A DNA stretch of 63,486 nucleotides, filler included, from Perkinsus olseni (Eukaryota), in the NCBI GenBank assembly GCA_013115125.1. It is 21 parts of 21 records of this genome, joined end to end, with 100 filler letters (N's around TTAATTAATTAA, not from the genome) between each part and the next. Parts side by side here need not be neighbours in the genome. Positions count along the whole stretch, not along the records: positions 42,666 to 45,575 come from JABANN010001481.1; positions 45,676 to 48,580 come from JABANN010001482.1; 19 more parts are not named here. The stretch is one strand, 5' to 3'. The first letter of the stretch is position 1. Every line of letters starts with the position of its first letter. The notes below the pieces were generated by a model. That model ran no database searches. It was given only the letters and a program-made list of their open reading frames with translations, and had not been told where the DNA came from. The translations under genes were made by a program, and so were the position numbers. Positions 2,978 to 55,982 of this stretch are shown here, in pieces.

Positions 2978-3077
2978 NNNNNNNNNNNNNNNNNNNNNNN
3001 NNNNNNNNNNNNNNNNNNNNNTTAATTAATTAANNNNNNNNNNNNNNNNNNNNNNNNNNNNNNNNNNNNNNNNNNNN
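2978..3077. other. Artificial contig-joining linker (N44-TTAATTAATTAA-N44); first of 20, about every 3.05 kb
   Basis: The same 12-mer, with stops in all six frames, is flanked by N runs at each junction. Contig lengths fall along the window (2977, 2975, 2971, 2970...). Confidence 0.98.
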
Positions 3078-6052: not shown

Positions 6053-6152
6053 NNNNNNNNNNNNNNNNNNNNNNNNNNNNNNNNNNNNNNNNNNNNTTAA
6101 TTAATTAANNNNNNNNNNNNNNNNNNNNNNNNNNNNNNNNNNNNNNNNNNNN

Positions 6153-9123: not shown

Positions 9124-9223
9124 NNNNNNNNNNNNNNNNNNNNNNNNNNNNNNNNNNNNNNNNNNNNTTAATTAATTAANNNNNNNNNNNNNNNNNNNNN
9201 NNNNNNNNNNNNNNNNNNNNNNN

Positions 9224-12193: not shown

Positions 12194-12473
12194 NNNNNNN
12201 NNNNNNNNNNNNNNNNNNNNNNNNNNNNNNNNNNNNNTTAATTAATTAANNNNNNNNNNNNNNNNNNNNNNNNNNNNNNNNNNNNNNNNNNNNGTGGTCC
12301 TGTGATCTTTGGAAGTCTTGTGACCGTCTGATCTTCGTGAATTCGTGCGCCGGCTTTACCGCTCGTTGATGTAGTAGCAGGCAGCTGATAAGACGGCAGC
12401 CTGGCAGGCCCCCATTTTATGCTACTGGTGCGGCTGTAACCTCTCCCTGGCGGCTGGTCATCCCTCGTTCTAG

Positions 12474-14657: not shown

Positions 14658-15733
14658 GATTGGTATTTCGTGGCGCGTGACGGTCGTCCGTTGCCACGTG
14701 CTGTACTATTGATTCTATCCCTATGCTGCTTCTTGCAGCAGTTTTACGTCATTTGTTCGAGCGCCCCCTTGCGAGCATAGTGGGGTTGAGTTCCTCTTCG
14801 GTCACCCTTCACACTGTTCCTGCTCAGGTGGTTTTTATATTCCCTTCATGCGTTCCGGTGTCGCCTGTATGATCTTCGGGACGTCCCGAGCGGCCCTTGG
14901 GGCACCAGAACTCGGACTTCGTCCGTCGAATGAAGCTGGCATAGATATTTCGCGCCCTTACCTGCCCAGACTCTCGATGTGGGGGTAAAACTAGAGTTTG
15001 TCTTCAACGATACTTCAAGGTATGTCTTCAATACCTGGATTATTGGATTGCATTACTGATGAGGCCCCCTCAGTCGCAATAGATTTCGGCTGACTGCACT
15101 CCACTCACTAGAGTGTGGTAAGCCGCAAATTGTGGTTCTGGGAGAGTAAGCTCTCTGCTTAAGCTCCCCGAGCCACAAAGCCACATGTATCCCTCGTGGC
15201 TAGTACAGTTCCGACCAGTGATCGGTCGTACAGTGACAGTTCGTACAGTTCCCAGTGATACANNNNNNNNNNNNNNNNNNNNNNNNNNNNNNNNNNNNNN
15301 NNNNNNTTAATTAATTAANNNNNNNNNNNNNNNNNNNNNNNNNNNNNNNNNNNNNNNNNNNNGCGGCCACGGGCTTAAAAGGCACGCGCTCTGCCGACTG
15401 AGCTACCGAGGCACATGCTACCGATGACACATGGGCCAAGAGGCTCCCAGGTAGCTAACCCACTACGCTAGAACAAAGTCGAGTAAGGAACGCACCTCGG
15501 GCGGGGCTCGAACCCGCGGCCGCGGGCTTAAAAGGCACGCGCTCGGNNNNNNNNNNNNNNNNNNNNNNNNNNNNNNNNNNNNNNNNNNNNNNNNNNNNNN
15601 NNNNNNNNNNNNNNNNNNNNNNNNNNNNNNNNNNNNNNNNNNCCTACCGAGGCACATGCTACCGATGGCACATGGGCCAAGAGGCTCCCAGGTAGCTAAC
15701 CCACTACGCTAGAACAAAGTCGAGTAAGGAACG

Positions 15734-15806
15734 CACCTCGGGCGGGGCTCGAACCCGCGGCCGCGGGCTTAAAAGGCACGCGCTCTGCCGACTGAGCTAC
15801 CGAGGC
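15734..15806 (-). tRNA. tRNA-Lys(UUU)
   Basis: GCCTCGG TA GCTC AGTCGGCA GAGC G CGTGC CT-TTT-AA GCCCG CGGCC GCGGG TTCGAGC CCCGC CCGAGGT G. Cloverleaf with G73 and one mismatch in the anticodon stem. Confidence 0.88.
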
Positions 15807-15886
15807 ACATGCTACCGATGGCACATGGGCCAAGAGGCTCCCAGGTAGCTAACCCACTACTCTAAAACAAGGTCGAGTAAGGTACG

Positions 15887-15959
15887 CACCTCGGGCGGGG
15901 CTCGAACCCGCGGCTACGAGTCCCTCAAATACGCGCTATGCTGATTAAGCTATCGATGC
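15887..15959 (-). pseudogene. Degenerate tRNA copy at the array edge
   Basis: T-arm and 3' acceptor strand are identical to the Lys gene. The 5' acceptor strand, D-arm and anticodon arm are disrupted. Confidence 0.75.
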
Positions 15960-16008
15960 AAACAGTTTAACGTCGGAGTGATTGAGACGCCCCAAACTAG
16001 CTAGTCCC

Positions 16009-21485: not shown

Positions 21486-24438
21486 GGCGTAACCAGGGGG
21501 GGGCAAAGGGGGGCACCTGCCCCCCTTTCTGACCGACCGGCCCCACCAGCTGCCCCAGTTAGTGATGTGGTCTGCTTGGGGGGCAAAGAAGAAGCGCGTT
21601 CTCGCGGATCACGATCCAAGCCTGACGGTTCGTGCTGGAGAAGTTCGCGCGTGCGGTTTTGCACGCATGCGCGAGGCCTTCACAGCGAGCGCCGTTGAAC
21701 GTGAGTAATCGCACATATTTCAATGACAAGCCGTATATGGTGTCAGCTCATGGCGGGCGCGCAGCAGCAAGCGTCGCCTGGCGGCTTCAGTTTTCAGCCT
21801 GTGGTTTCCCATGTCCAAGCGTCAAATGCCAATTACTGGCTTTCTTGCCAAATACCCCAGGTCGAGCAGCTCTGGATCCGCTGTACAGCAGGCCGTGAGG
21901 ATCCCTGAAGATGCCAGATCCTCTCCCGATTCTGTGAGGGCCGATGAGGATGATGTCGAGAAGGCTGAATCAAACACCGGCACTGATGATCAACCGCATG
22001 TCTCCGAGTTATCGACGGGCGAGAAGGGATCGATCGGGGTGCCCGGTCTCTCAATACTGAAGAAAGATGGGCCTACGCAGCCCAAGGGTCCCTTCCCAAA
22101 GAGAAACGGGCGGGCCTTCGTGGGCACCTGGTATGATAAATATCCTTGGATTGAATACTCGGTAGCAACGGGTCGTGCATACTGTTACCCTTGTCGGTTT
22201 TTCCGCCCGGCTCCATCAAGAACATGGTGTGTTGATGGCTTCGCCAACTACAAGAAGTCGGAGCGTATCGCTGATCATAGCTCGAGTGGGGAGCACAAAG
22301 CCGCCATGGAAGCCTGGTCGCGCTACCGCGTTGAGTGTTCAACTGGAGAAACTGTTGCGACTCGGCTAGGTGAGGCGGGTCGAGCTACCGTGGCCGCCAA
22401 CAGGCGCCGTATCCGGTATTGTCTTCAAGTTGTCCTTTTCTGCGCCATTCAGGGCATCGCTCTTCGTGGACACTTGGAGGATCGGAGTGATCCTGACGAT
22501 ATGTCGAACAATTCTGGTAACTTTCTAAGCATCATGAAGTTATTGGCTTCCCACTCACAAACCCACCGCGAGCAGTTTGAGGGGGCCCGTAATAGTCGTT
22601 ACCTTTCGCCAAAGGTCCAAAATGACCTTCTGGCCCTTGGGGCCCAGTGGGTGCGAAGAAAAATCAGCCAAGCCGTGGCTAGTTGTAAGTTTTTTGCACT
22701 CATTGGGGATGAGTCGAGAGATAATAGCAAGACTGAGCAGCTATGCTTAACATTGAGATATCTACGGCCTGTCGACTCTACAGCTCCTTCTAAAGCCTTG
22801 GAGGTGGTGGAGAGTATCCTTTTAACAGCCCCTTGCGAGGCTCTCACTGCCGATTATTTGACTGAACTTATCAAGGATAGTCTGCTCGAGAATAGCATCA
22901 ATGTGAGCGATTGTGTTTCAACTTCATTTGATGGAGCAGCCAATTTCTCGGGATCGAAGGGAGGTGTACAAAACCTCCTCCGGGAGAGGTACGCATCCCG
23001 CTCCATTCATGTCCATTGTCTAGCACATAAGGCCAATTTGGTCCTAACCGCTGTGTGTCGAGACATCCCGTCGATCCCCCTATTATTTGATACCTTACAA
23101 GAAGTCTATGTATTCGTTTCGAGTGCGGCTGTCCATCCGCAGTGGATGCGGATCCAGCGTGACGTCTACCCCAATGAGCCGCCTCGCGAGCTGAGAGCGC
23201 TCAGTGAGACGAGATGGAATGCTCGTTACGAGTCGGCCAACATCATGTGGATTCGCCTGGAGGCTATCTATGATTTATTGGATCATATCATTGACAATGA
23301 CGTGCCCGACAGGAGGGCCAAGGCCGAGGCTTTGAGTCGTAGGCTCGATGGACCTTTTGTTGTCGGTTTGTCCATGATGCGGTGGGTCCTCAAGATGATG
23401 AGTGCCTTCACCATAGAGATGCAAAAGGTGGACTTCAACCTGTCGGATGCTATCGCTCGTGCCGTCGAGTTAGACTTGGTTCTTCAAAGGCCGAGAGCTG
23501 ATGAGCCAGACGAGGTATGGGAAGATGTTATCTTCGGCCCGGCGAAGGATATGTGCGAGGAGCTCGAGATTGACTTCGTTCCTCAGCGACCAGTTCGTCG
23601 AGTGAGGGCTGAGAAAGGCCCGAGGTGCAGGGCGGATTACCGTGCCATTTTCATCAAGGTTTGTGACGCTCTGCATCTAGAGCTCCAGGATCGCTTTTTG
23701 GGTGAAGAGAGGCAGGCATTGTACGACGGTCTCGATGCTCTCAACCCCGCGATGGAAGAAAAGTTTCTCCAAGCCGGTCCCCTCATTGGTATGGCTCAGC
23801 ATTTCGGTATAATCACTAAGGATAGCTCTGCTGTCTCTGGTTTACTTGCCGAGGTTAGGACCTTCCGAGACACTCTGGCTCGTGTTGATGGCAAGCCCGG
23901 GAGCCTGATGACTCTGCTGCAATTCCTCAACGAGCGAGAGCCGATTTTCCACAACATATTCCAATTGGCGAGAGTTTGTGCAACCATACCAGTATCTTCA
24001 GCTCAGTGTGAGCGGGGTTTCTCTGGAGTTCGTCGAATAAAGAACTTTATGAGAAGTACCATGACGCACGGACGACTTTCTGACCTCATCGTTATACATC
24101 TTAACCGCCAATTGGCTTCGCGAATCAATGAGGAGGAGGTCGTTGATGACTATCGCGATGCTGCCGAGAGGCGCGTTGATCTGTGATGCTCTCGGGCCTT
24201 CTGAGTCGTCAGGTGTCTCATCAGCATTGCAACAGGTGATTGTCGTTCATTCACCTGCATTGATTTTCAGTTTCCTCGTTGAGGTATCTGTCATGTTGAA
24301 TAGTCGGGAAGGGTGACAATCTCGAGGATATTTGATCCTCGATATACAATATATCATACATTCAGCATGACCCACCAGTGGTGGGCCACCCGGGATGGAG
24401 TACAAAACCTGACCCCACCGCATTAACAGCTGCCCCCC
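21486..24438 (+). mobile_element. hAT DNA transposon filling the whole contig
   Basis: Left end GGCGTAACCAGGGGGGGGCAAAGGGGGGCACCTGCCCCC is typical of hAT TIR regions. The right end terminates in CAGCTGCCCCCC. Encodes a transposase. Confidence 0.88.
21811..24186 (+). CDS. hAT transposase (zf-TTF/DUF4371, ZMYM1/P52rIPK-like), 791 aa, intact
   Basis: WYDKYPWIEYS..AYCYPC zinc finger, ALRGH, catalytic DESRD and FDGA, HCLAH, ETRW and SSAQCERGFS dimerisation domain. Confidence 0.93.
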   Translation: MSKRQMPITGFLAKYPRSSSSGSAVQQAVRIPEDARSSPDSVRADEDDVEKAESNTGTDDQPHVSELSTGEKGSIGVPGLSILKKDGPTQPKGPFPKRNGRAFVGTWYDKYPWIEYSVATGRAYCYPCRFFRPAPSRTWCVDGFANYKKSERIADHSSSGEHKAAMEAWSRYRVECSTGETVATRLGEAGRATVAANRRRIRYCLQVVLFCAIQGIALRGHLEDRSDPDDMSNNSGNFLSIMKLLASHSQTHREQFEGARNSRYLSPKVQNDLLALGAQWVRRKISQAVASCKFFALIGDESRDNSKTEQLCLTLRYLRPVDSTAPSKALEVVESILLTAPCEALTADYLTELIKDSLLENSINVSDCVSTSFDGAANFSGSKGGVQNLLRERYASRSIHVHCLAHKANLVLTAVCRDIPSIPLLFDTLQEVYVFVSSAAVHPQWMRIQRDVYPNEPPRELRALSETRWNARYESANIMWIRLEAIYDLLDHIIDNDVPDRRAKAEALSRRLDGPFVVGLSMMRWVLKMMSAFTIEMQKVDFNLSDAIARAVELDLVLQRPRADEPDEVWEDVIFGPAKDMCEELEIDFVPQRPVRRVRAEKGPRCRADYRAIFIKVCDALHLELQDRFLGEERQALYDGLDALNPAMEEKFLQAGPLIGMAQHFGIITKDSSAVSGLLAEVRTFRDTLARVDGKPGSLMTLLQFLNEREPIFHNIFQLARVCATIPVSSAQCERGFSGVRRIKNFMRSTMTHGRLSDLIVIHLNRQLASRINEEEVVDDYRDAAERRVDL

Positions 24439-38555: not shown

Positions 38556-39689
38556 TGACCAATGAAGTTTGAACGATTCGCTTAGATGTCATGTTCTCAT
38601 TCGAACCATATACCATTTCGTATTCGGTACACTCAACTTTCGCTCTGGTCATTAACTAACTGAGCACTCTCACGTCCCTGATGAAGCTCTGTGGTGAGAA
38701 GATAGCAGTTCGCATGACCGGCTCGATGAGCCAATCACAGCAGCCTTCCGGGCGTGTTGCAAGCACGATGACTGGACCGCTCCTTTGTGGCTAGAATACA
38801 CACGATCTTGCAGAGGGAACCGACACAAAATTCGCTAACGAGAAAGTTGTCCCGGATTGAGTCGTCAACTCGGCGTGGAGACAACCAACAGCACTCCACG
38901 GAATTTATTTGACTCGAGAGAAGCTTCTGCAAGATTATTACAGGGAGCCTCCCGCATGAACCCGAAGCGAGATCCGCCCTTCATCAAAGACGTGGTGCCG
39001 CTGGGCTTAGGACACTGGGAACTAGCGCGCGATCGAGGGAGGCAGAATTCCGTTTGGTAACGGAATATAGAAATGTCCCCAGGACTCCTGGACCAGGAGG
39101 CCGGTATTTCACTCAACTCATAGACGCAGGGTGTACAGCTATAATGAATGATAATCAAAAACAAAACCGCTCTTACACACTGGCTACTGTCGCCGCGCGA
39201 ACAGGTCCTGCCATATTGATGGCTGGCCCGTCCTTCCCAGTCTTCCAGCAAAGCTCTCAATGGACAACACAACCGAACTCAGATAAAGGAAACTATTTAT
39301 GACAAAAAGACAACTGAAACCATGGTCAACCACCGCTGGGACTACGAGGTGGGAATCTAAGAGCTGGCGCTGACCTCCCGCTTCTCCCCCCATGCGGTGA
39401 CCCTGGGGTCGGCATGTACGTTGGACAGGATACGTTTGAGATTGAAGTAGGTATCGCAGATGGTCGGTGGGAAACCATCAATACAGGGTGTTCCAATTCG
39501 ATATGCAAATCACAAAAATCAGTCTAATTCAGCACATACTACGTGTTTGAGNNNNNNNNNNNNNNNNNNNNNNNNNNNNNNNNNNNNNNNNNNNNTTAAT
39601 TAATTAANNNNNNNNNNNNNNNNNNNNNNNNNNNNNNNNNNNNNNNNNNNNCTGAAGTTGAGTTTTTCCCTCCAGTCCTTCCATCAGCT

Positions 39690-40925
39690 ATGGCGCAACG
39701 CAGAGACGAGCAGCAAATCGTGCAACCGGACCAGCTGGCTCTGGGAGCGGCGGCGGGTGACGACGGCGACAACAGAGTCGAGAATGACGACGGTGAGAGC
39801 GTGGTCAGCCAAGAGCATGTGGTGGTCGACGCCGACGAGAACGACGGGGGCAACGTCGAACCTCGCAATGCCGAGGCCGAGGCTGCGGCCGAGGCGCTCA
39901 GGAATCTACCGTATAAGGCGGCCGAGTTCTTGAGGCAGAACGCCACCCTGAGTGCCCAGAGAGATATTGCTAGTTGCCTAGTCAGGCTCGGTGTGACCAA
40001 CGAGGTTCTTCTGCGAGACTTGCACGGAGCCTGTGATGAGGTTGCTAGAGAGTTGGATCAGCCAGCTAATGCGGTGGCCTTGAGATCTCTGGCCCGTCAT
40101 TATGCAGCGGACTCATCCGCTCGCGGTCACAAACGCAAGCGTGCGTCGACTGAGGTGGACGAGGATACTTTGCCCGTGCTGCAACGGGAGTTTGAAGCTA
40201 TCCACGGTATGCGTGTGCCTGGCCGATACCTGCTCGGGGCTACGGCCTTCGGAAAGCTTAGCAAGAAGCAGATGGTACAGCTATCCGAGTGCGGGATGGT
40301 GTCGAGGAGTGGGCAATCCGAGGACCTTTTGCTCCGTTTCAACAAGCTTACCGGTGAGCTCAGCTCTGGGGTCACAGAATCCAGGGAGTCTACTGCTGAC
40401 AACCCGTCCTGCCAATCGGCAGATTTCTTTTTACGCTTGGGCAGGTGGTTGCTCACGGCCTCGTTATTGAAGCTCGCTTCACCGCTGGAAGGCCTTCTCT
40501 ACCTCACTAGGGTCGCCGAAATGGGCCGGGCCAGCGGGGTGTCTTACATGCAAAGCGCTGACTCAGAGTTGCGAGCCGAGTTAGGCGCTAGTAGCTGCGA
40601 CGAGCCGTGGGGTAAACAGCTGGCTCAGGGGCACCATGACATCCTGTCTCGTCATGGACAAGCCGGCAAGACTGCCATCGCGCTCAGTCGGTCTGTTACT
40701 AACGGTCGCGGGTCCTCGCATTCGTCTAAGCCATCAACCTCGAGAAGCTCGTCTGATTGGAGGTCCGATGATATCTGCCGTCTCTTCCAGCGTGGCAAAT
40801 GCCACTATGGGGATAACTGCAAGTTCCGTCACGTGAAGCAGAGGTTCGAAGGCCGCCGAGGAAAGAAGAATGGAAGCGACGTTAAGCAAGAGGACACTGG
40901 CCGGGGTAACGATAGGAGGTCTTAG
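39690..40925 (+). CDS. Gag-like ORF1 of a DIRS/Ngaro-type retrotransposon, with a CCCH zinc finger
   Basis: C-terminal CRLFQRGKCHYGDNCKFRH (C-x7-C-x5-C-x3-H); lies directly upstream of an RT ORF. Confidence 0.7.
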   Translation: MAQRRDEQQIVQPDQLALGAAAGDDGDNRVENDDGESVVSQEHVVVDADENDGGNVEPRNAEAEAAAEALRNLPYKAAEFLRQNATLSAQRDIASCLVRLGVTNEVLLRDLHGACDEVARELDQPANAVALRSLARHYAADSSARGHKRKRASTEVDEDTLPVLQREFEAIHGMRVPGRYLLGATAFGKLSKKQMVQLSECGMVSRSGQSEDLLLRFNKLTGELSSGVTESRESTADNPSCQSADFFLRLGRWLLTASLLKLASPLEGLLYLTRVAEMGRASGVSYMQSADSELRAELGASSCDEPWGKQLAQGHHDILSRHGQAGKTAIALSRSVTNGRGSSHSSKPSTSRSSSDWRSDDICRLFQRGKCHYGDNCKFRHVKQRFEGRRGKKNGSDVKQEDTGRGNDRRS

Positions 40926-41334
40926 GCTTCGGCCGAGCCTTCAGCTGCCGACGTCAGCAGCGCTTGAGGGACAGATGTCAGTCCCAAGAGCTAAGCAACG
41001 TGACGCATGTCGCGTTTTTGATTGCCGTAGCACTGTGTGTAGCTGACTGTAGCTAGCAGCCGAGTTTCCTTTCGTAGTCGGCCTAATCTGGCATTACGAG
41101 ATGCAGTGAAACAATATGCGAGTCTGCTCGACTTTGGATTCTGAGTATGCACTTAAGTTTCGCCAGCGAGGAGCTACTGCGTTCGTTATTTAGTGTAAGC
41201 ACAACTCGCGAAGATAACATCGCTCGGTCTCAGGCCGTTCGCCTCCGAGCCTTGGCGACAAGTCGAGACCGGCCAGTTCATCAGCTCTCGCAACACCTTC
41301 TGACAACGAGTGCGAGCTCCACGCGGCTGACTGT

Positions 41335-42565
41335 TTGGAACGGGCACGAAAGCATATCTCGGAAAGCCTTGAGCAGCTCACATTTGTGAAAGACGGAGCG
41401 TTCGGATACACGTCGGACAGCGAACCACCGCTCACCGCCGCCCAGAAAGCTGTGGGCGAGAAAATTGGGGAAATAATATGGGCTGAGTCATCGGCCAATG
41501 GTTTCACGGAGGCATTTGAGGCCGTGTCGGGTACTCCCACTGCTGAGCAAGTCGCGAGATTGGAGGAGACAAGCCAGGCCTCGGCTACTAAGGCTAGGAA
41601 GAGGATATCCGAACTTTTAGGGGTCGAGCCAGGGAAAAGAGACAATGGAGGCCGCATATATTGTGGCCTGTTGGATGCCCTTGTCAGGAAACTGGGAGTG
41701 CCGGACGTGGCTCTGAGCTCCATACTCAGAGTGGGAGTCCCTATAGGGATCAGCAAAGAAGTTCCTCCGTGCCCATTGTACCCACCGTACGACCCTAAAC
41801 GGTACGACCCGTACCCAGCTAGCGAGAATAGGAACTATAAGTCTATGGACCATCCTGACGTGGTGGGGGCGGTGGGCCGGCTGATTGCTGAAGAGGTCGA
41901 GGCCGGGTACCTGCGGGTTCTGGACGACGTGCAGGCGGCAGACCCGTCCAGAACCTACGTCAGTAGGGGAGCCATCCCGAAAGGGGAGACGTACCGCTCG
42001 GGCATAAGGGTGATAGAAGATTATAGGCGCAATAATATCAATCTGTCCTGCGCCATACCTAACTCGACGGTCTTACCCAACATCGTTAGCCTCCGTACCA
42101 AGGTCGGGTCCCTCCTAGATCGGTGGCCCCACGAGAAATACAGGGCTCTGAAGCTGGACTTGCGAAGTGCCTATAGGGCTATAGCTGTGCACCCGGCGGA
42201 GAGAAAGCATCTGTCGTTTCGCCATGTCGGGGAGGATGGCCGCCAACGTTCCTACGAAAATGTGACCCTGCCCTTCGGCCTCGCGTGCTCAGCCTATTGG
42301 TTCGTGAGGTTCGCGACGGTAGGGCAGCAGTGCATCACTGTGGTGGTGAGGGCATTTACGGCAGCGTTGCTGGTCGCGAAGGAGTCCTCGAAGTCAGGGA
42401 GCTTGACTGAGCAGGGCGCTTTCCCAGGGACAGGCGTCCAGTATGTAGACGACGGGTTTTGGTGCCTGGCATCTTGCATCTACACCCGGGCGAGCGTCAT
42501 CATATGCTTGCTATGGATTATCATCGGGCCAGAAATGAGTTTCCCAAAACTCCGGGCGAACGTGG
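41335..42565 (+). mobile_element. Reverse transcriptase of a DIRS/Ngaro-like retrotransposon, 3' truncated
   Basis: LRVGVPIG, RVIEDYRRNNIN, KLDLRSAYRAI, LPFGLACSAYWF and YVDD. No protease motif between gag and RT. Confidence 0.8.
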
Positions 42566-45500
42566 NNNNNNNNNNNNNNNNNNNNNNNNNNNNNNNNNNN
42601 NNNNNNNNNTTAATTAATTAANNNNNNNNNNNNNNNNNNNNNNNNNNNNNNNNNNNNNNNNNNNNATATCTTCGGACGAATCCAAAATCTTCGCTGTGCG
42701 CAAATCCTCTAGAATTAATACGGCAATGGTCGCGCTGAGATCATTCACCAATTTCCCATTTTCTTGCAGAATCGCCGAGAGAAGGTCTTCGAGGAACGAT
42801 TCCCTTTGTGATGGTGTTAGCTGAGACGCCATCAACAGAGCAACGCTTTCTCGGGAATCTGCATTTGCTTGAAGATTCTCATTGAGCGTAGCGACGGCTG
42901 AGAGGGACGCAAGCATCGAAGGAGCTGTGAAACACTGAGAATCTTAGGTCGATCATGGTTAATCACGGATCGAAACTTTGGAATCTTTCGAATCGGAAGA
43001 TTCTTCTCCCTTAGTGAAGCTTATTCCCTGCTACCGAGGTCTCCAAAATTTCCTGCAAATCCTCGAGAATGATGTTGAATGACTTTCGTTATTTCGCATA
43101 GCATTACTTTGATCGGCCAAACATGATGCCCCGAGAGCATTGCTCCCCATGAAATGTAATATCGCAAAAAATCTATTTACTTTTCCAAGTATCAAAAGAA
43201 TTCACCCAAAACAATTTCGAAAAATCAATCAATAATGATCAAGATTTAACACGTAATTTTCATGGAAGGAATTCCAGTGGCACAATTCAAGGATTAGAGA
43301 ACCCCGTACTGCGAACACAAGAAGGCCGAGTTGTCGAACAACAATTGCAATCAGACAATCCATGTAAAGGCAACTCGCCGTACCACTCCTTCAACTACTC
43401 ATCCTCGTCCTCTCGAGTCAAGTCTTTCCCGAGCGCCTTTACCGCCTGAAGCCGAACAGGGATCCCCCATCGCCCGAGAGAAAGGGAAGGTGCGGTATGT
43501 ACGGATGATAAATATTATCGATCAGATAATGAGAAGTTTTATCGGTCATCTACGTCGATGGTATCTTATGTCGAAGCCCTCAAGATACCACTCAAACCTG
43601 GGTCACCAGGATAGCAGTCAGCCGCTCTACGTACTGAACTAAACCGGGCTCGAGTCCACCGGGCTCACGCGAAGTTCAAAGCCGCGTTTGAACTTGCTCG
43701 TCGTGGCGGAGCGGAGCACGATTCACGCTCTAGGAACGTTCCTAAGGCAATTTCTTCGGGAACTCGGTCAATGAACATGCCTGAAGCTCATGCCCAGACA
43801 TGTTCCCGAAAGTTTTCAGGAATGTGTTTGTTGAACACAAACACTGGAAACGAACTCACGCGTATCTATTGAACAGCCCGCATGAGTCGTTGGAGGCGAT
43901 AGCGGAGCCGTCAGGGTTCGGCGCGCAAGTGGATACGCATACATGGGAAGTTCTTAACGAGTAAATTATTCTCCTAGTGGACTCTTACCACACGTCGGAT
44001 CATCCCAGCCTTACGCGTTGATGAGTCCTAGACTGGTCCTACTATGATAGTAGTACTATCGTTATTGCACCGACGACTCCTATGCCATACCAGCTATGGC
44101 CATTGAGGTCACATCGCCCGCTTAAACCAGAAACGGCTACAAGATGCGATGCGTGACTGATGTATATCTATGATATTCAGGAAGATGAATTTTGTGTTTG
44201 ACAATCGGATTTTATATGCTCGTAGTGACTATCCAATCCCTTTGCGTATCTCTCTCCAATGTCGAGTTCTCCAAGCAACAACCAAGGGCAGGGGGTGCCA
44301 CACACCCTCAACAAGGCTCATTTTTTGCCTTTCGAGCAGCAGGCTTTCTCTCGTTTNNNNNNNNNNNNNNNNNNNNNNNNNNNNNNNNNNNNNNNNNNNN
44401 NNNNNNNNNNNNNNNNNNNNNNNNNNNNNNNNNNNNNNNNNNNNNNNNNNNNTTTCTCTTCTTCAAAAGCCTCTACAATTCAGGAAAATTTTTTTCTGAA
44501 CCACGAGAGAGTGTCCATTCCCATAATATAATTCTTCACGACCGTCGGTGGGATACCATAGTCGACAGCTTATCAGGCTCGGAGAGCCAATTGAAGCTTT
44601 CCTTATACATCGTGCTGTACATGGTATTATACCATTGGTATAATCGCCACGTCTCTCGGCACAAAAGGCGCCGCCGGCTGTTAAGCCTATACCACGCAAT
44701 GGTGGTCTTCAAAAACTCGTCCGTCGTCAGCTGCTGTTGTAATACTCCCAGATCAACGCATAAAGCTTTCACTACCAGATCGTAATATATCGCCGGTAAA
44801 TATGATGATGTACCAACATCATAAGTTATGATGATTCATAACTCTCCGCACCTCCCCGGGGTTTCCCTCCCTTGTTATACCAAAAAAGTTCGAAATTGTC
44901 CGACAGCTTCAATGCAACCCCATACGCAATCACATAGTGAACTGGCACCGAACGGTGAGCCCGAAAGATCTTCCACCGGGAACAATGAGAGCAGTCGCCC
45001 AAAGTTTAACACCTCATATCTTCACGCCCAGCAGGTCGATTTTTCTCGAGACTGGACCATCTTCTAGGTTGCAAACTTCCTCAGACACGCCGCACATTTT
45101 ACGGGACTTTAGATCATTTTGCTGCTGTCTGAGATGCCGTTGCAGCAGTTCTCGCTTGTCTCTGCCGTCGCAACTTTCGGGCAGCATTCAATTCCCCCGG
45201 AATTGAGTAGTGGTAGGCGAGGTGGTCGTGTCGTTTTAAGGTTTGAGGGGGCGAACTGTAGACGAACCACCGCTCGTAACGAAACGAGCGGTACAGAGTG
45301 GCCGAGTTGCTGTTATTGCGGCACTCAAAGTACAGTAAGCTTCAGTGTCCGGACTTATCCCAATGACGACGAAGCAGATCATCGTTGCAGCTGCTACGGC
45401 AATGGTATCCAACATTCCAACCGGTCTCGCACTTGGTGCGATGAAGCCTGATGACGTGAGTAACCAAACCTTAGAGAAACGTATCCGTCGAAGGGACTTC

Positions 45501-47384
45501 AACCACCTGCAGAAAAGTCTTTTTCGAGGAAGTGTCCCGCTCGGTTGTGACGGAGTCACTCTGGCACATGCTTTTNNNNNNNNNNNNNNNNNNNNNNNNN
45601 NNNNNNNNNNNNNNNNNNNTTAATTAATTAANNNNNNNNNNNNNNNNNNNNNNNNNNNNNNNNNNNNNNNNNNNNATCCCCTAACTCTAAAAACTGAATG
45701 CGTGAGCCCCGTTGAAAGTTTACCTGTCTTTAGATGGCGGGTACTGTAGAACCGGTGGGCTTGTTGGAGAGGAGGAGAGAGGAATCCAAGCTTATCTGCT
45801 GAGGTAGTCAGCTCTGGTGTTCTCCTCGCTAGTAATGAGCTTCAGTTGAAACTTGACACCGTATAGCATTGAGCAGTCTATTTATAGCTTGGCGTTCGAC
45901 AGTTTTGGTCTTGATAGTTAATGGAGAACCTTTGCACCACCGATATACCGTGCTGCTATCAACATAGGCCTCGATAGTAAAAATAGAAAGTCGTCGTTCT
46001 TCATGCCATGTTACCAGTGCACTGAGAGCCTCGGCGAGACTCCTCGCCTCCTTCCTATGAATATGCCAGATAGACTCTCGCTGTGACCAGGTTCGGGAGA
46101 CTTCTTCCAGAGGGACTTCGCCAACCAAGATAGAGTAGCCGGAAGCTGTTGCCGATGCATCTGAAAATAGCCTTACACTAGTACTGTTGAAGGAAGCAGT
46201 ATGAATACAAGAGCACTTGGGCAAGAAGACCTTTAGAGCATTAATGAGAGATAACAAGTAGGAACGAACAGACGAGTCTGTGATAACTGCGTCCCACTTT
46301 TCCTATTTTCCAGCATAAGAGCGGATAGCATCACAGAGGCTCCTGCACTCAGGGTGGAGCTTCAGTAAGTCTGTGAAGTGACCAGCGATGGAGTAGGCAA
46401 TACGTTTCGTAATATGGTCACTGTCGACTTCTGGTAGAGGTTTTACTTGACATCGGTACTCAAGATTACCATCTTCTCCCAGACGAATAAGATAACCGAG
46501 ATGCTGTACCCAAGAAGTAGGGCCGTGATCATGATGAAGAAGAGAACGCTTAGAAGAGAGAAAGTCCCATCCTAAGACTCGAGCGAATGATGAGATGTAT
46601 TCGGCATGTTGAGAGAGATGTTGACCTACCAGAGAGAGATCGTCATAGTACCAAGCATGGTATTTCAATGCAGAACGCGAAGAACATTTCAGAAGTACTT
46701 CATCGAAGTGATGGGTTGCTTCCTGCAATGCCCCCGGGCCGCAATTGATACCAAACAGCATTCTCCGACATTTGAAAATTTTATTACCCGTCCTCACATA
46801 GAACGGTTCTACCGCTCTGAAACGATAGTAACATTTTGATAGATCTAACACCATCAATTCGTCACCGACCTTGAAGTGAGAGCGCAGAGAACCAAGCACT
46901 TCCGCAGTGCTGGGACCGGAATAACTCGAAGCTATACCGAGAGCATTATTAAAGGATCGCAGATCTATCACCGGTCTCACCGGCGTACTATGGCCGGGTT
47001 GACGAATAGGGAAACATACGGCAGTTGGGGCTCCTTGAGGTAGGCCTGCTGGAGAGACCTCTTTCCACCATCCCTTGGACTGATACGAGCTGATTTCCGA
47101 CCAGTAGAGAGCCCTTTCCTTGTCCGATAATAGTGACAGAAGATTCTGCGAATAGTCAGCCGGATTCTGAACTTGTACACGATCGTCGCTTCTAACCGAA
47201 TTTCGCATGTGACTTCTTGTTCTGGAGTATCCTTGACCTCATCTGGTCGTAGTGGACGTACTCGGAACTGATAACCGGTGCCGGAGCAGGCTCGTAGAGG
47301 TCGCCAAGGGCATAGTAGTTTTTGGGCTTTTTCTGAAAGTGGTTGTGAGTCAACTTGAGCCGATGATGGGGTAGCCGTAGAATG

Positions 47385-47887
47385 GGGATGTTCACGTTTC
47401 GTACACCAAATAGTCGTACATTTTCGACTCATGTCTCTAATACTCGTACATTTTCTAATCGTACACGAAATACTCGTACACTGAATAGTCATACATAAAA
47501 TACTCATACACAAGAGATTCGTACATATCAAACTCGTATACATGATGCTCGTATATATAATACCCGTACATATAACACCCGTACACATAATAGTCGTACA
47601 CTTTCAACTCGTATACCGGCATTCCATACACTCTCATGTCGTACACAACCCCAGTTTCAAGTCGTACACCGTCATTCCGTACACTCCGCGAAAATTTTTC
47701 AGGCGCTCTCCCGCCCCTTACTACCAAGCTACTTCCTCCCTGGTAAGGGAGTCCCTGCACATAGGATCGAACTTGCGACCTTCTGATCGAGAGCCCGCTA
47801 CTTTAACCACCATACCACTCACACTAACAAACTTTTTCTCACAGAGTGGCGCGAGCAGTTCGCTCACTATAGACAATATAACGTACC
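47385..47887. mobile_element. 503-bp non-autonomous element with 9-bp TSD, tRNA-like head and 15-bp periodic array
   Basis: CGTAGAATG at 47376-47384 and 47888-47896. Ends GGGATGTT / AACGTACC. Excising it restores the host frame TPSPSHSTATPSS. Confidence 0.85.
47763..47819 (-). promoter_or_regulatory. tRNA-derived Pol III internal promoter-like sequence (A box and B box)
   Basis: AGTGGTATGGTGGTTAAAG ... AAGGTCGCAAGTTCGATCC with tRNA-like spacing, but no complete cloverleaf. Confidence 0.6.
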
Positions 47888-48680
47888 CGTAGAATGAGAT
47901 GGACTGGGAGTGTCCCGAATACGAGACGATGCTGCAAATGTAAGATGACCTCCTTGTGGATGATGATGACCTAACTCTAGTTTAGCAGAGTATTTGGAGA
48001 GGAAGTCGTGACCAAGTATACATGAAGGAAGATTACTCAAGGCGGCAATATAGAAGGAGTGAGTATAATGTTGGGATGGATTATCCTCGAGATGAAGTTG
48101 TAGACCGATTTTGGAATGTACATAGAGAATAGACCGAGCAGTAGAGAACTGTAGAAAAAAAAAGAAAACTGTAGAGGCTTTGATAGCCTTTGAATATATT
48201 TGTCGAGTCCAAGAGTAGAGATGAACTTCTGGTCAATGAACGATGCCGATGAACCAGTATCGACAAGAGCTCGACAAGATACCGGATTTACTGTGAATCT
48301 TCTTGATCCAACGAAGGTACTTGGGAGGACGACGGACCGGTAGATACCGACGTCCCTTCCCCGTTTGGGTAGTTACCAGTGGATATATTAGAGATGTTAC
48401 CATTATCACCATTGCGCTCCCGAGCCAATCTCGCAATAGCCTTGCACTCGGAGGTCCAGTGATTATTAGTTTTATGATAGATAGTATCTATTAGATACAC
48501 CATCTCCTGCTCGACGAGCCCTTGCCACCTTGCCCCTTGCCGTTTTTCCCATTACGGCCGTTGAAACCATATTGTCGTCGNNNNNNNNNNNNNNNNNNNN
48601 NNNNNNNNNNNNNNNNNNNNNNNNTTAATTAATTAANNNNNNNNNNNNNNNNNNNNNNNNNNNNNNNNNNNNNNNNNNNN

Positions 48681-48750
<70 letters not shown>
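48681..48750. repeat. (TAG)n microsatellite; another at about 51510-51581
   Basis: Direct reading; both ends of this contig terminate in the repeat. Confidence 0.95.
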
Positions 48751-48752
<2 letters not shown>

Positions 48753-48792
48753 CAGAGTGGTGGTAAGTCGTTGATGTTAGTGTTTTACATGA

Positions 48793-51456
48793 CTAATAAT
48801 GGGGATATTGACGAGAGGGGCCCCCATTCTGATAATAGCGATTATTATTGTAAGGCGACTGGTATTGTTGTTGTTGTTGGATAGTAGTGGTAGGAGTAGT
48901 TGCCACTGGTGTTCCTGTAGTTTGACGTTGACGATAATTACGATTGTTGATGTTATTCTTGTTATTATTAGATGATGTAGTAGCAGTAGTTGTATCGTCC
49001 ATAGTCCATACAGTAAACCAATCAACATCAGGATGAGGTGGGCATGGTGGTATATCCCTAATCTCATCTTCACGTACACTCAGTTTAATGCCAACCCTAG
49101 TATGTGAATATACCAATACATTCTGGCATAATGCCCCGATACGGAACAATAGAGAATTTAGTCGGTACCTGACACGATGGCAGGGATGATGCCGAGGCAT
49201 TACTATTGTCCTAATCATCATCATCATTATTACCAGGGGAATATGAGCATGACACATAAAGGTAGTCGTAGATCTCTTCTTTGTCTTAACACTATATAGT
49301 TGAGAGCGAGTACCATGAGGTACCTACAATGGACGAATGAGTAATAGTGTGATGGTGATGATGATGGTGATGATGATGATGGTGATGATGATGGTGATGA
49401 TGGTGATATTGTTATTATTACACTAACAATGTTAATATAGCCAACATGATGATGAATGCTACATAGTCACGACAAAGCAGACCAAATAGTAAGAATATCC
49501 TCAACCAATCCAGACAGATAGTTAGCAACTCTTGTATGAAGTATGGTTTAAGGACCCAACTAGGTAGATGACACCAACCAGCGGGATTGATGATCTCTAT
49601 CAGATACATAAACGTCTTCCTGTGTGATGTAACATCCCATGACTTAACACGCTGTCTGAATAATTTAGTCCTGAGAAGCAACGGTATGCCGGTAGCATGC
49701 TGCTGTTGTTGTTATTACCATGTATCGGGTGCATAGGTTGGTATGAGGGATTGGGCCGACGATATTATCCTGGAATTATCTCTCTTCCTCAGAAGATTGA
49801 TACCCATCTGTAGATCTTCACCATGGAAGACGGTATCATGATCATACAAAACCTAGTAACGACGAATGAGGATGGTAATCATTGGTATTAATAAGGGTGT
49901 AAACGTAGCCGGCTGGTTGTACCATCACTACCTCGTCGAGTGTTTCCCTGTCCCATAATGCAACAGCACCATGGCAACTCGTTGCAGTTGCTAGGGTTGC
50001 CTGAGTAACAACAACAATAACAAGAACAGCAACAACAAGCAACGACAAGAACAGTCTTGACAATTACTTGAAACTGCTTATGTACCGCAGCTAGCCTATA
50101 TTCGCAGTCTTGGCATCCCACCAAGACATTAGATACCGCGCTACCACCATTAGCTGCTGCTGCTGGTGGTGGTGGTGGTGTTGTTGCACCAATAGGGAAG
50201 TGCACAGCTTTTATCTCAGGACATTGATCGAGTAGTTGATGTGGTATGTGTAGGTCCGATGGTAGTATAACATCATCATCAATAATGACAGCATACTTAA
50301 ATGACGGTATTCTATCGTTCTGTTGAAGGAATGGTATCCAATATTTATTACACCAATAGAAGGCAAAGGTCTTGTTACCCTCCGGTATATAAAGATAATT
50401 AATATCAGGATGTACCTGATGATGCACGTAGCATGAGCGCTGCTGCTGCTGCTGTCCTGGATATTTCCACGTTATTATTACTTGTTCACAGGCCCATATA
50501 TTCTCATCAGGTGGTTGTAATGATGAACCATTATCACATACAAAGATGTGGGATGGTGGGAAGAGTGATAATGCTGCCCTTAACATATTCAAATGGTTCT
50601 CCAACCTACAACCATCACTTATTGTGACTGGAAGTTGTTGGTATTACCTCTCCAGTGTCATAGTAGAATTATGGCATGCAATCATGAGACATACATCCCT
50701 TGTCATACCTTGGCTTAGGACCTGATCATCATCATCACCTTGCATATCATCAGGATGGTAATCATTCCCACTATCCGTGCTCTTGCTAGCTTATTACAAA
50801 ATCAACTGTTGCAGTATCTTCACTGGATGGTAATGTTGATGTAACTCCAGCATCAATACTGCTGGATATCAAACTACTCAGATCACCATCACTATCTTCT
50901 TCATCATCATCGTACGAGTAATCATCCTTGGAGACATCATCACCATAGCTGGCATGCTGTTGTTGATGATGATGTTGTTGCTCTAGCACCCGTGCAGCAT
51001 AAGGTGTACTGTCATCACTCCTTTTATTCAATTGTTGTAAACGTCGTTTGGTGAGTGAAGGATACCTCGGACGTACCCTGCTGTCATATCTTCTACCACG
51101 ATAATTACCATCCTAACAACATGACAGCAGCCAATACACCACACATGTTACTGCTATATTACCACATCCTCATCATCATCACCATCGTAGTAGGAGTGTT
51201 GATAATAAGATCGTCGTTTGCCATTATAACTGTGAGCCTCTAAAGGGTTCACATCATCATAATACGAATCATCATCATCATTACGATGATGATGATATGG
51301 TCGCTCCTCAACATCATCGTCATAAGACCTTATTGAACGCCCCTCTGTTAAACTTCCATCCTCCTCTTCGTCGTAATAACCAATACCATCATCATTGCGG
51401 CCCTCTTTACTATCCTTATCACCACGTAGTTCAGCTTGTAGTCTATTAGCAAACAC
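48793..51456 (-). CDS. Multi-exon membrane GT2-family processive glycosyltransferase (HAS/chitin/cellulose synthase superfamily); boundaries approximate
   Basis: IFVCDNG, EGNK, IIDDD (DxD), EYRLA, HGAVALWDR, DTVFHGEDL (ED base) and LFRQRVKSWD (QxxRW equivalent), followed by hydrophobic segments. Confidence 0.8.
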
Positions 51457-51508
51457 CTGTACAACAATAGTACAACAGCAGCAGCAGCAGCAGCAGTGGA
51501 TTGTTGTT

Positions 51509-51581
<73 letters not shown>

Positions 51582-51681
51582 NNNNNNNNNNNNNNNNNNN
51601 NNNNNNNNNNNNNNNNNNNNNNNNNTTAATTAATTAANNNNNNNNNNNNNNNNNNNNNNNNNNNNNNNNNNNNNNNNNNNN

Positions 51682-51754: not shown

Positions 51755-54566
51755 TCCCCCCCTGATTGATCATCAGATCAATCACAACATAACTACGAAA
51801 AAGCAACCACATCATCTGCTCCATAATAGGGACGCAGATTCGCACGATGCTCCGACTTCTCTACTAGAAACTTATCAGAGATAGTCACCGTAGCTCGGTC
51901 TGATAAAACTGCCTTAACGACAAAAGGGCCAACCCAGCCAGTGGCCATACGAACCAGAACCTTCTACCACCTTTCCACCATCTTGCCCGCATACACAGTG
52001 GTTGTTGGTCTGCACCTTCTAGGAACCATAACCACCCGTACCCCACAGTCGACGCATCACACTGAGCCACGATAGTGGTACCACATCTCACCGGAAGGTT
52101 ATGGGAATGAGACACAATCCCATCTTCCACCATCGCAAAAGCAGTCGTCAATACCTTCTTCTCCTCAGCCGACAACAGATGCGGCTTATCCCACGCCAAA
52201 GTCCATCGACCAGCTATCATTCTGCACGTATCTGCAGCGAGACTCCATTCTGGATGACGGCGTAAGCCGTCATGCCATTTTCCCACTACACTGAATAGCT
52301 GTCGCTTGCTGAACTTCTCCTTCACGACCGGCTTCTCGAAAGTAGCACAGCTGACGGTGAGGTGCTGCTCGGCCACATCCCAAAAAACACCCAAATGCCG
52401 CGATCGCAAGGACGGACCATGAGAGCATAATATCACAGTTTTAGAAGCTGGAATCGGCAAACCATGGAGCGCAGCCAGCTCCCTTATCACGAGCACAGCA
52501 CGTCTCACTTTCGATGATGTCCCTATCAAAGTCAGATCATCAAGATAAGCCCAAGAGTATACGCCATCCAAGACGCCTGCCTGTTTGGCTAAGGCTAATA
52601 TTCTCAGGACGAACGCTTCTAACCCACTTGGCCCAGCCGCTAGGCCAAATATTAATCGACTAGTGCTGTACCATTTATGACACGTTCTCAACCAAAGGCG
52701 GGTCAGGCAACCGGAGGAACTACACAGACGAAGCCGATAAAATGCACGGCTTATATCGAGACAAGCCATGCATACACCATCATCATGATCAGTCTCGTTA
52801 TTCATCTCGCTAACAGCGTTCACTGCAAGAGCAATCTCACTCAAGATAGCACCAACATTCTCACCAGCAAAGCTGGCCTTCTCCATCCGACTATTCAAGC
52901 GGCGACAATCCGCTACCGGCCTCATTACCGTACTTTTCAGACTACTCTGCGGTAGACCAAAGATGATAATATGATCATCATTGTTGTAGTAGTTACCCTT
53001 CTCTACACTCCCAGCCAATTTNNNNNNNNNNNNNNNNNNNNNNNNNNNNNNNNNNNNNNNNNNNNNNNNNNNNNNNNNNNNNNNNNNNNNNNNNNNNNNN
53101 NNNNNNNNNNNNNNNNNATTTTCCCTCTTCCACCAAGAGTTGGCAATGTAGGAGTCGATCTCTTTAAAATATAGACGTTTCTGCTCTGTTGACAGCTTAG
53201 ATAACAGAGCCGAACTGTAGTCTACCACTTTCTTCGTCTCCTCAGTAGCACATAAATTCGGGAGCCTCACTTCACAAACATACCGCTGCCCTGGACAGTC
53301 AATCACATCATCGGCACGGACCTCGCGTACACGGTAAAAGTAATTTGGCGCTGCTGGCACCCTGCGCCAATCGAACACATAGGAGTCACATTTAGGCTCA
53401 TCATTCTCACCGTTGGGAGTGTACGACTCAACTTCACTGGGAGCTTCTTCACTGGCCAGCTCCTCTATATCACTAGAGACTGCATACGAGTCCCCACAAC
53501 AACGTACCGCCAGGATATCCGGCACCACGGACTCAGTCGTGACAGTAGTATCAGAGCTCTGGTCGCACAAGAGCTTACTCTTCTGGCCCTCACTCACGAA
53601 GCTTGTTGATATACGGACCCCTTGCTCACACTCGCTGATGGTAACGGAAGTCCCCAACCTCGCCAGAAGCTTGACACCCCAGATCACCGAAGGGCATAGG
53701 CCTTGCACAACATAAAAAGGATGAACCAAGGTGACACCATTACTGAATCTCAGTGCCAACTTCACCATCCCAGCAACTGCCCTCATACTACCATCGGCCA
53801 ACTGAATAGAAGAACTCGTCTTCTCCAAAGAAATGACCGATGCGCTCGACGACTGCAAGGCACAATATCTCTCATACGACAATAAGGCATCAGCTGCACC
53901 TGTATCAACCAGCCCTCGTAGTGGAACACCCTCCCACCACGCAGTAAGTAAAGCACCACCAACATCTTCTTCTTGACCACTCTGACTGTTCTGAAACGTA
54001 ACGGTTCTCGAAGGGATAATAACCGTTTCGACCACACCACCCTCATGGGCCACCATGCCACGAGAGCCATCATTAATAACAGCAGCCTTGGTAGTCACAG
54101 CCTCTGTCTTACTGGCAGCTTGCTCAGACACTTGCGAGCTCACTCCTTCTCTATTCGGGCACGCGCTGGCCAAGTGTCCAGTTTGGCTACAGTTCCAGCA
54201 CTTACGCGGCCCCTTATCGGCCGTACACTGGCGTGCCAGATGCCCAGTCTTTCCGCAGTTATAGCAACGGCGAACCCGGGGATAAGCACTACCTAGTGTC
54301 GCTGTTGCTACCGTCCCTGTACCACTCCTATCTTCTCCAGTCAAGTCGATCACGGCAGCGCCTTGCTGAGACCTTCCGACATCACTTTGGCATTGTTTAG
54401 AACGTCGATCCAGCATAGCCACCGTACGCACCCAATCGTTCCATGTATTCGCCACGACCGCAGCTGTCTGACTGGCCAAAGCAGTAGAACGTAAGCCTCT
54501 ACGACTGATCATAATGAAGAAGCTATCATCATAGGGCATATGCGAATTGCGACACTGGTCCCTATA
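51682..54566 (-). mobile_element. LTR retrotransposon with an internal deletion of RNase H C-terminus and integrase core
   Basis: Two CCHC knuckles, LVDTGA, RT (LDISRAF, LIFG, YLDD) and RNase H CDAS, then an abrupt jump to WVGPFVV..EHRANLRPY in another frame, PPT and LTR. Confidence 0.9.
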
Positions 54567-55982
54567 NNNNNNNNNNNNNNNNNNNNNNNNNNNNNNNNNN
54601 NNNNNNNNNNTTAATTAATTAANNNNNNNNNNNNNNNNNNNNNNNNNNNNNNNNNNNNNNNNNNNNGGCTGCATCTCGGCTCTGCGTCACTCCGTCGCAG
54701 ACGAGAGGAAGGATCCGAGACATGGACGCGGCAAACAGGCACTTCAAGAATAGCTTACGACTCGAATACGATGCAACTGTGAGCTCGAAATATTCCAATA
54801 ACTCAAGGTCCGGTGCGACTGTGCCCGGCGTGTCTCTCCAATGCAATGCTGAGTCACTCAACTTGAGTGAGCACGATTCCTCTTTTGTTGACTCTTGGAA
54901 GTGGGAGGGCCCCACTCTCGGTTCACAAACTCAGAAACCCTACAGATACACGCTGGGTTGCGTGCAGCGGTAAAAGGTCAGGAGAATTCTGCCAGGGAGG
55001 CTGCAGCGCACACGCTACAGAAAGGCCCTAGAAATTGGACCTGGGGCCTGGATTCGAGACCAAGGCCGGAGTACTCTATGAGAGAACGCCTCGCCCGGCA
55101 GAGGGGGATGAGAACTCGGCGTTACCTATCGTCACTGGCGGAGCCGGTCCCGCCTGACTGCTTCCTCACTCATAAGCCATCAGACTCTGTCGCTCGCCCG
55201 GGACGGCCGCACAGGGAGGGGGAACCAGTCCCACTTTATCTGCAGATAAGCTTCCGACTAGCGCAAAACGAGAATCAGAATGAGCCCTAGAATCTAGGGC
55301 CTACATGAGATCGTGCCCTCTCGGATGTTAGAGATACGTTCAACCTGAGCTGTTCAGGTTGAATGGTTCCACAAACCGAGTCACTACTAACCTGGACTAT
55401 CACATCTGCAATCGCGCGAGTCGAGAGTCGATTCCCAAGGAACGAACGCGCGGCGTTGGACCGAATACACAGCGGAGTGGGCATCAAGGAGGCCCTCACA
55501 TATGGGCTACATTACGGATTACTTAACGGAACTTAGCTAACACAACCAGTGCACTATCCTATCCAGTTTGCTAAGGCGGACAAACTTCTGAAGCCAACAG
55601 CCATCATGATGGAATGGCTCGATGATCATGTATGACACAGCATTCCATACACAGCTTGGGTAAAGCTGCTCCACCGCGGTTGAGAGTGGGAAAAATTACG
55701 TCGCTACGCATTCACGATGTAGCGAAGGATGTATAATTCACCCTGATAGCGTTGTTAATACTCTAATGCGCCTCATTACATCCTCCACTCCCTCGAAATC
55801 CTCACATCAGCAAGCCCCCACGAAGCAGGGCCTCGAGGATCAATCGGACGATGAACGGCGAGAGGTCTCAGTTCGCCTACTTGGTACGTTCAACTTGTAA
55901 CTCGGAAGAACATACTATCGAGCGAGAACATCATGGACATCACGACAGAATAGAGTGGAGGCCGGAATCTTGGACTCTTCTT

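Follow-up and report, generated by a model that had tools for sequence, protein, structure and literature searches.

A 498-bp insertion nested in a Perkinsus olseni retroelement, probably a retroposon of an uncatalogued family with an unusual phased 15-bp array

A segment in the pol region of a Perkinsus olseni retroelement was identified as a real mobile-element insertion with a target-site duplication. It is probably an ordinary nested retroposon insertion whose family is probably uncatalogued and which carries an unusual phased array; the hybrid of DNA transposon and Pol III head that had been proposed in a sequence-only reading of the same DNA does not hold. The window comprised 63,486 nucleotides (filler included) of P. 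olseni DNA, and all coordinates refer to it. The base-by-base reading concerned a single copy of the element, and the evidence on its family was taken from short contigs of four public runs (X1, X2, X6, and X10) placed on positions 46900-48500. The insertion and its flanks have the following coordinates.

47385-47882, minus strand (putative sense): inserted element of 498 bp, delimited by empty-site joints and contig ends.
47371-47384, no strand: left-hand target-site duplication of 14 nt, the last 10 (47375-47384) exact; the empty-site joint fits.
47883-47896, no strand: right-hand target-site duplication, either of 14 nt with a mismatch at position 47886 or of 10 exact nt preceded by 4 additional bases.

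The sequence-only reading had described a duplication of 9 bp around the insert. The corresponding direct repeat CGTAGAATG was present at 47376-47384 and 47888-47896 as proposed, but the duplication is longer: the exact repeat comprised 10 nt (CCGTAGAATG, 47375-47384 and 47887-47896), and a repeat search gave a flanking repeat of 14 nt with 13 of 14 positions identical (47371-47384 versus 47883-47896). Likeness of the element to the placed contigs stopped at 47882, exactly where the 14-nt repeat begins. Thus, the element was assigned to 47385-47882, and the former extent of 503 bp (47385-47887) was revised because the flanking repeat reaches further.

Host copies lacking the insert, for which the same reading had suggested a search, were found as direct joints in three of the four runs and as a loose end in the fourth. 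In X2, X6, and X10, at least one contig each joined 47374 directly to 47887, with 512 bases skipped and 10 letters fitting both sides of the joint. The X2 contig had a length of 1569 nt, with 187 and 475 letters on its two sides. In X1, the same junction was seen as a loose end: a 195-nt contig stopped at 47384, and its next 19 letters were those of 47897-47915. The empty-site contigs were a few percent off the window flanks (18 and 10 other letters in two X2 pieces), indicating that they derive from paralogous host copies without the insert. Both flanks read HST in frame at the two repeat copies, as deduced from the codon phase of the minus-strand ORFs 47867-48232 and 46977-47603, and their frames meet once the 512 bases are skipped (from the ORF coordinates, not from a joined sequence). 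In agreement with the earlier claim, removal of the insert and one repeat copy would thus rejoin the host pol frame.

The host is an old LTR-type retroelement that was multi-copy before the insertion. The domain order on the minus strand is protease, reverse transcriptase (RT), and RNase H-like, in frames that differ.

45829-48372, minus strand: host, degraded LTR-retrotransposon-like pol, from Pfam matches, ORFs, and alignment of the linker to a second element.
48037-48372, minus strand: host protease motif, Pfam match below the curated cut-off.
46303-47238, minus strand: host RT, Pfam match below the curated cut-off.
45829-46302, minus strand: host RNase H-like domain, Pfam match below the curated cut-off.

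As all Pfam matches were below the curated cut-offs and the frames differ, the host was regarded as a degraded copy. The insertion site is its protease-RT linker. The window contains a second retroelement, to whose protease-RT linker the downstream flank aligned (18 of 46 positions identical, E 5e-07); the upstream flank gave no alignment to it. Elsewhere in the window, a subtilase ORF (639-2249) had 35 protein matches at E ≤ 1e-10, the top 11 of which were all from Perkinsus (9 P. olseni, 2 P. chesapeaki); the best showed 93% identity and covered 94% of the query. These matches point to a Perkinsus close to P. olseni as the source of the window.

The element belongs to an abundant interspersed repeat family of Perkinsus. 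On the 1.6-kb stretch, 336 contigs of X1, 622 of X6, 23 of X2, and 3 of X10 were placed, numbers that do not equal copies; the counts for X1 and X6 establish the membership of a repeated family that the sequence-only reading had assumed. Among the X1 contigs, 114 of 336 were at least 99% alike. The summed contig depth inside the element was 10-40 times that of the flanks with a peak at the 47385 end, though contig depth cannot rank the parts of the element. The three X10 contigs gave no cover inside the element, which is not evidence of absence, and a 213-nt contig of X2 was identical to 47647-47859, which proves nothing on transcription (that X2 and X10 derive from RNA is a guess). A BLASTN search of the element against the window retrieved only the element itself and its internal repeats.

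The two ends of the element behaved differently in the contigs. At the left end, at least 14 contigs from three runs lost likeness at 47381, 47384, or 47385, and their flanks agreed with each other only at 0.45-0.65, i.e. they were unlike. The disagreement of these flanks indicates that 47385 is a fixed terminus of the family in many places. At the right end, at least 4 contigs of X1 and at least 8 of X6 lost likeness at 47882 and then continued in one common sequence (agreement 0.96-0.97). From this shared continuation it follows that other family members run on where the copy in the window stops. No end with unlike flanks was seen at 47882-47888 among the loose ends listed, those with a single contig included; beyond these, there may be copies whose ends lie at 47882-47887 and whose flanks are unlike. 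Two features of the element bear on its ends.

47385-47398, minus strand: 3'-terminal unique stretch beyond the last array unit, with no poly-A; loose ends at 47384/47385.
47702-47882, minus strand: 5' module of the copy, 181 bp; contigs 85-87% alike share this module and extend past both its ends.

The contigs that extend past 47882 (two records) were only 85-87% alike to the element and may represent a sister family. One of them, with a length of 2179 nt, had approximately 2 kb on the array side, the first 255 letters of which do not fit the array. The 30-letter continuation past 47882 was not found in the window even when up to 3 mismatches were allowed. These observations also bear on a different reading, in which the segment would not be an independent short element but a piece of a longer composite repeat, taken up in a single event; the long form could be a satellite-bearing element or a LINE with this piece as its untranslated end. 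The occurrence of the 181-bp module in other contigs with different sequence on both sides, among them the 2179-nt contig, is in its favor, as are the indel variants and the palindromic variant seen in other copies around 47699-47706. A single capture is at odds with the at least 14 contigs with unlike flanks that stop at 47385 as at a mobile terminus, and we regard a composite piece as rather unlikely. It would overlap with the retroposon reading if the long form were a LINE.

The data were best accounted for by a 5'-truncated non-LTR retroposon or SINE-like copy formed by target-primed reverse transcription, a reading that we hold to be somewhat better than an even bet. The combination of a fixed and an open end, the length of the duplication and its slight imperfection, the lack of inverted termini, and the lack of coding capacity point to RNA copying by a LINE enzyme, from which we infer an RNA intermediate, the minus strand as the sense strand, and a partner enzyme. 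The constant 3' end together with a variable or truncated 5' end, by which non-LTR retroposons are recognized, was found on contig evidence among the loose ends listed. With regard to length, the copy is a 498-bp interspersed sequence with at least 14 unlike flanks at 47385, and at least 12 contigs continue beyond 47882. In the proposed sequence of events, a repeat copy would have inserted into the protease-RT linker of the multi-copy LTR-type retroelement. A minus-sense RNA would have been copied by the LINE enzyme from the fixed 3' end (now 47385), copying or joining would have stopped early to give a 5'-truncated copy that ends at 47882, and staggered nicks would have produced the target duplication of 10-14 bp. 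Either form of the duplication, 13/14 positions or 10 nt with 4 additional bases at the 5' junction, is in accordance with joins made in reverse transcription. On the basis of one copy, the family may be a SINE proper or the 3' end of a LINE.

Several properties of the element speak against a retroposon. As the sequence-only reading had noted, poly-A was found at neither end; a simple-repeat tail is likewise lacking, and no partner LINE was found in the window. RNA folding of the 3' end gave a z score of 0.57 and that of the 5' module a z score of -0.55, both no better than shuffles, and no 3' stem-loop stood out. The exact 10-nt duplication also fits a Mutator-like element.

A non-autonomous Mutator-type DNA transposon was considered in its own right. 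Its inverted termini would be degenerate or absent, and its movement by cut-and-paste would have given a 10-bp duplication. Mutator-like duplications comprise 9-11 bp, a range into which the exact 10-nt repeat falls. The absence of poly-A is equally in accordance with such an element. DNA transposons do occur in this genome, as is evident from an intact hAT transposase ORF at 21727-24186 of the window. Against this stands the absence of terminal inverted repeats, by which Mutator-like elements and MITEs are recognized: a repeat search with seed 6 detected none, and the sole inverted pair was internal (47765-47773 and 47857-47865). In the short imperfect inverted termini that the sequence-only reading had put forward, only 6 of 8 bases match, and 4 of the 8 right-hand bases lie inside the extended 14-nt flanking repeat, so these termini were discarded. 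Furthermore, one end alone acts as a terminus, with at least 12 contigs running on alike past the other, which was absent as a terminus among the contig ends listed; and the flanking repeat reaches 13/14, which is not given by a cut of fixed length. We consider a Mutator-type origin unlikely. Merlin duplications comprise 8-9 bp and are accompanied by inverted termini; the element has no such termini, and its duplication of at least 10 nt (10-14 bp) is too long. The DNA-transposon reading suggested before was not supported.

In the hybrid reading, a non-autonomous element would carry its own tRNA-type Pol III promoter and transcribe through the array. The relevant features are given below.

47763-47817, minus strand: stretch with A box (start 47817) and B box (start 47773), 2 mismatches each; no tRNA detected.
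47691-47699, minus strand: A5-T4 run that separates the array from the 5' module; its T4 (47694-47691) resembles a Pol III stop, and other copies have indels here.

The minus strand contains A-box-like and B-box-like motifs 44 nt apart, each with 2 mismatches to the textbook consensus, and MAFFT aligned the stretch in register with the tRNA-Lys of the window with 34 of 74 columns invariant. The 3' half of the stretch may resemble an arginine tRNA, which was given no weight. However, ARAGORN found no tRNA in the element by default and none at the claimed place when thresholds were lowered to ps70; the only tRNA detected in the window was the tRNA-Lys at 15733-15806. Rfam searches gave nothing at E ≤ 1 over 47200-48100 (901 nt), only a meaningless IRES match at E ≤ 10 over 47735-47845 (111 nt), and no tRNA, 5S, or 7SL match in the searched stretches. 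Motif pairs of equal quality and spacing occurred 16 times in the window; across 30 shuffles, their number averaged 8.5 (range 2-13), and the match was judged to be at chance level. An ungapped comparison with the tRNA-Lys gave 30 of 62 identical positions (48%), tied at ranks 9-12 of approximately 127,000 placements and level with unrelated places. The stretch with the motifs begins 58-65 nt inside the copy, away from its 5' end, and in the family the sequence continues still further 5'. A T4 run generally acts as a Pol III stop, a rule that may not be that of Perkinsus; as the minus-strand T4 run lies between the A/B-box stretch and the array, transcription by Pol III should end before the array.

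According to the available part of SINEBase (PMC3531059), A and B boxes indicate but do not prove a promoter, and an identity of at least 60% over at least 60 nt is asked for. No such SINE head (tRNA, 5S, or 7SL at the 5' end) was found in the element; the identity to the only tRNA of the window was 48%, in an internal stretch. Both the tRNA-like segment and the promoter reading through the array were not supported on these grounds, and the hybrid is in our estimate very unlikely. With no inverted termini, one fixed end, and no tRNA signal, a combination of DNA transposon and tRNA-type promoter was rejected as a candidate.

The 15-bp array proposed in the sequence-only reading was confirmed by TRF and by a count of core motifs.

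47399-47691, minus strand: phased array made up of 19 units of 15 bp; the 8-nt core is conserved, and the phase slips once, by 8 nt, at 47654-47661.

At 47438-47601, TRF reported a period of 15 with 10.9 copies and 71% matches; a period of 30 nt was reported at 47399-47480. The core-motif count gave 18 in-phase matches at 47399-47677, which represent 18 of the 40 core-motif matches in the whole window, plus a degenerate unit at 47429. The core comprises 8 nt (YCRTAYAY on the plus strand), and the 7-nt spacer varies almost freely: the information content was 1.05-2.0 bits in columns 1-8, with transitions as the common variants, versus 0.13-0.79 bits in columns 9-15. In the putative RNA sense, the core is UGUAYGR-like, which, as a speculation, may resemble PUF-protein sites.

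A conserved core next to a nearly free spacer is expected if the core is under selection, and not if a tandem duplication has decayed neutrally. We infer that the array is the part that the partner RT recognizes or slips on. A bolder version would be a Perkinsus-specific retroposon of new build, without tRNA, 5S, or 7SL head and without poly-A, whose selected 3' array of approximately 19 evenly spaced cores serves as a multi-site landing pad for the partner RT or an RNA-binding protein; this appears rather doubtful to us.

The 15-nt period leaves open frames across the array, which are not evidence of coding. In agreement with the earlier description of the element as non-autonomous, the ORF in the plus frame had no match among 1.84 billion representative proteins. 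The minus frame had one match among 4 near-length candidates and none among 95 longer candidates. The matching P. olseni predicted protein from the published assembly (P0036) starts with 33 residues, 30 of which are identical to the translated array, and continues with RT-like sequence. It is a mis-predicted fusion protein and marks a second copy of the family, nested in another RT gene of P. olseni; as it was the only match, the element is non-coding.

Wider searches with short words or patterns of the element were carried out as well. A 26-nt word gave no match in a scan of genome contigs. A 20-nt word from the 3' end matched one metagenome locus, an unrelated, bacterial-looking contig that was dismissed as a chance match. 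A scan with the phased-core pattern yielded 58 prokaryotic and 4 viral loci; together with the metagenome locus, none of these 63 was alike beyond the pattern.

Perkinsus is a shellfish parasite whose mobile elements have barely been described: the literature searched holds Dada, Merlin, and a passing mention of retroelements. In the available parts of these sources (including PMC2868825 and PMC3942190), no SINE or LINE of Perkinsus was described, and judged on this literature, the copy possibly belongs to an undescribed family. If a young, abundant, short retroposon is indeed present, it would aid repeat masking, provide a strain or species marker, and help in judging assemblies of polyploid Perkinsus parasites. 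The array with its conserved core is a small oddity.

Among known systems, non-autonomous Mutator-like and Merlin elements share with the insertion that it is short, non-coding, and without poly-A, and its 10-nt duplication is in the Mutator range. Unlike these, it has no inverted termini, only one constant end, and a duplication longer than the 8-9 bp of Merlin. In P. marinus, Merlin remnants without identifiable termini are described in the available part of the report (PMC8101967). The Dada DNA transposons of the same species, according to the accessible text of PMC3706591, insert into tRNA genes; they have a length of 4.7-11 kb, encode a transposase, lie inside true tRNA genes, and give a duplication of approximately 6 bp. 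The genus and a link to tRNA sequence are common to both, but the element sits in a pol gene and contains no tRNA; its target is not a tRNA or snRNA gene but a retroelement pol frame, with a duplication of 10-14 nt.

In build, the element is like the CHRS/CHR-2 "quasi-oligomer" SINEs of cetartiodactyls, in which a degenerate motif of approximately 20 nt is repeated more than 10 times (PMC3531059, available part). In both cases, the body is largely a degenerate tandem array with a unit of 15-20 nt. Unlike the element, CHRS/CHR-2 are mammalian, their head is proven to derive from a tRNA, and their tail is A-rich. The likeness is one of build and not of sequence. By the definition of the same source, a SINE is a repeat below 1 kb in length that is interspersed and not in tandem. 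The element differs from SINEs and 5'-truncated LINE copies, which spread by target-primed reverse transcription, in that it has no recognizable tRNA, 5S, or 7SL head, no known partner LINE, and, in place of a simple repeat or poly-A, a tail formed by a 290-bp phased array with a conserved core. In its mode of action, the element resembles those SINE/LINE retroposons that have no poly-A; such retroposons, with a specific 3' tail in common with their partner LINE, are reportedly covered in reviews by Okada and Ohshima. Like SINEs and 5'-truncated LINE copies, the element is non-coding, repeated, interspersed, and nested; it is fixed at the 3' end, open at the 5' end, and flanked by a duplication of at least 10 nt.

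Assembled contigs from X10, one of four coded public sequencing runs and labelled organism B, were 95-99% alike to the degraded LTR-retrotransposon-like host element (45829..48372, minus strand) and carried the empty site, in which 47374 is joined straight to 47887. Thus, either the host element family is common to both labelled organisms, or the X10 label spans mixed material. Compared with the window copy, the run copies of the host element differed by several small indels at 47145-47200 and 48147, in agreement with the frame changes in the window's copy.

Transposable elements are abundant across the window. Besides the host element, at least three further retroelement pol or gag-pol frames were found, together with an unbroken ORF of 819 amino acids:

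9176-12241, plus strand, retroelement pol or gag-pol frame
39600-42621, plus strand, retroelement pol or gag-pol frame
51885-54614, minus strand, retroelement pol or gag-pol frame
21727-24186, plus strand, 819-aa ORF with hAT dimerisation domain, DUF4371 and zinc finger

A weak Pao-peptidase match and two CCHC knuckles were each observed in one of these further retroelement frames, and the RT at 41218-42565 was similar to the RT portion of the predicted P. olseni protein P0036. The ORF at 21727-24186 is possibly an intact hAT-type transposase.

Throughout the window, 44-N blocks occur in pairs at intervals of roughly 3 kb (e.g. 2978-3077, 6053-6152, 9124-9223), with a few runs of 96-97 N, and several ORFs are broken by N blocks, which look like masking or scaffolding rather than biology. 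Two long microsatellites adjoin such blocks:

48683-48755, (GTA)n microsatellite
51509-51581, (GTA)n microsatellite

Poly-Q, poly-T and His runs are frequent in ORFs close to the (GTA)n microsatellites (49888-51633).

In the region 15400-15960, ARAGORN called a single tRNA:

15733-15806, minus strand, tRNA-Lys(TTT)

Three further minus-strand tRNA-Lys-like stretches, starting at 15959, 15565 and 15412, shared 44-49 of 62 positions with this tRNA, or 54-56 of 74. The minus strand of this region thus appears to hold a few tRNA-Lys copies or pseudogenes in a small tandem cluster, with N runs covering part of it. For P. marinus, PMC3706591 describes an unusually high tRNA gene copy number.
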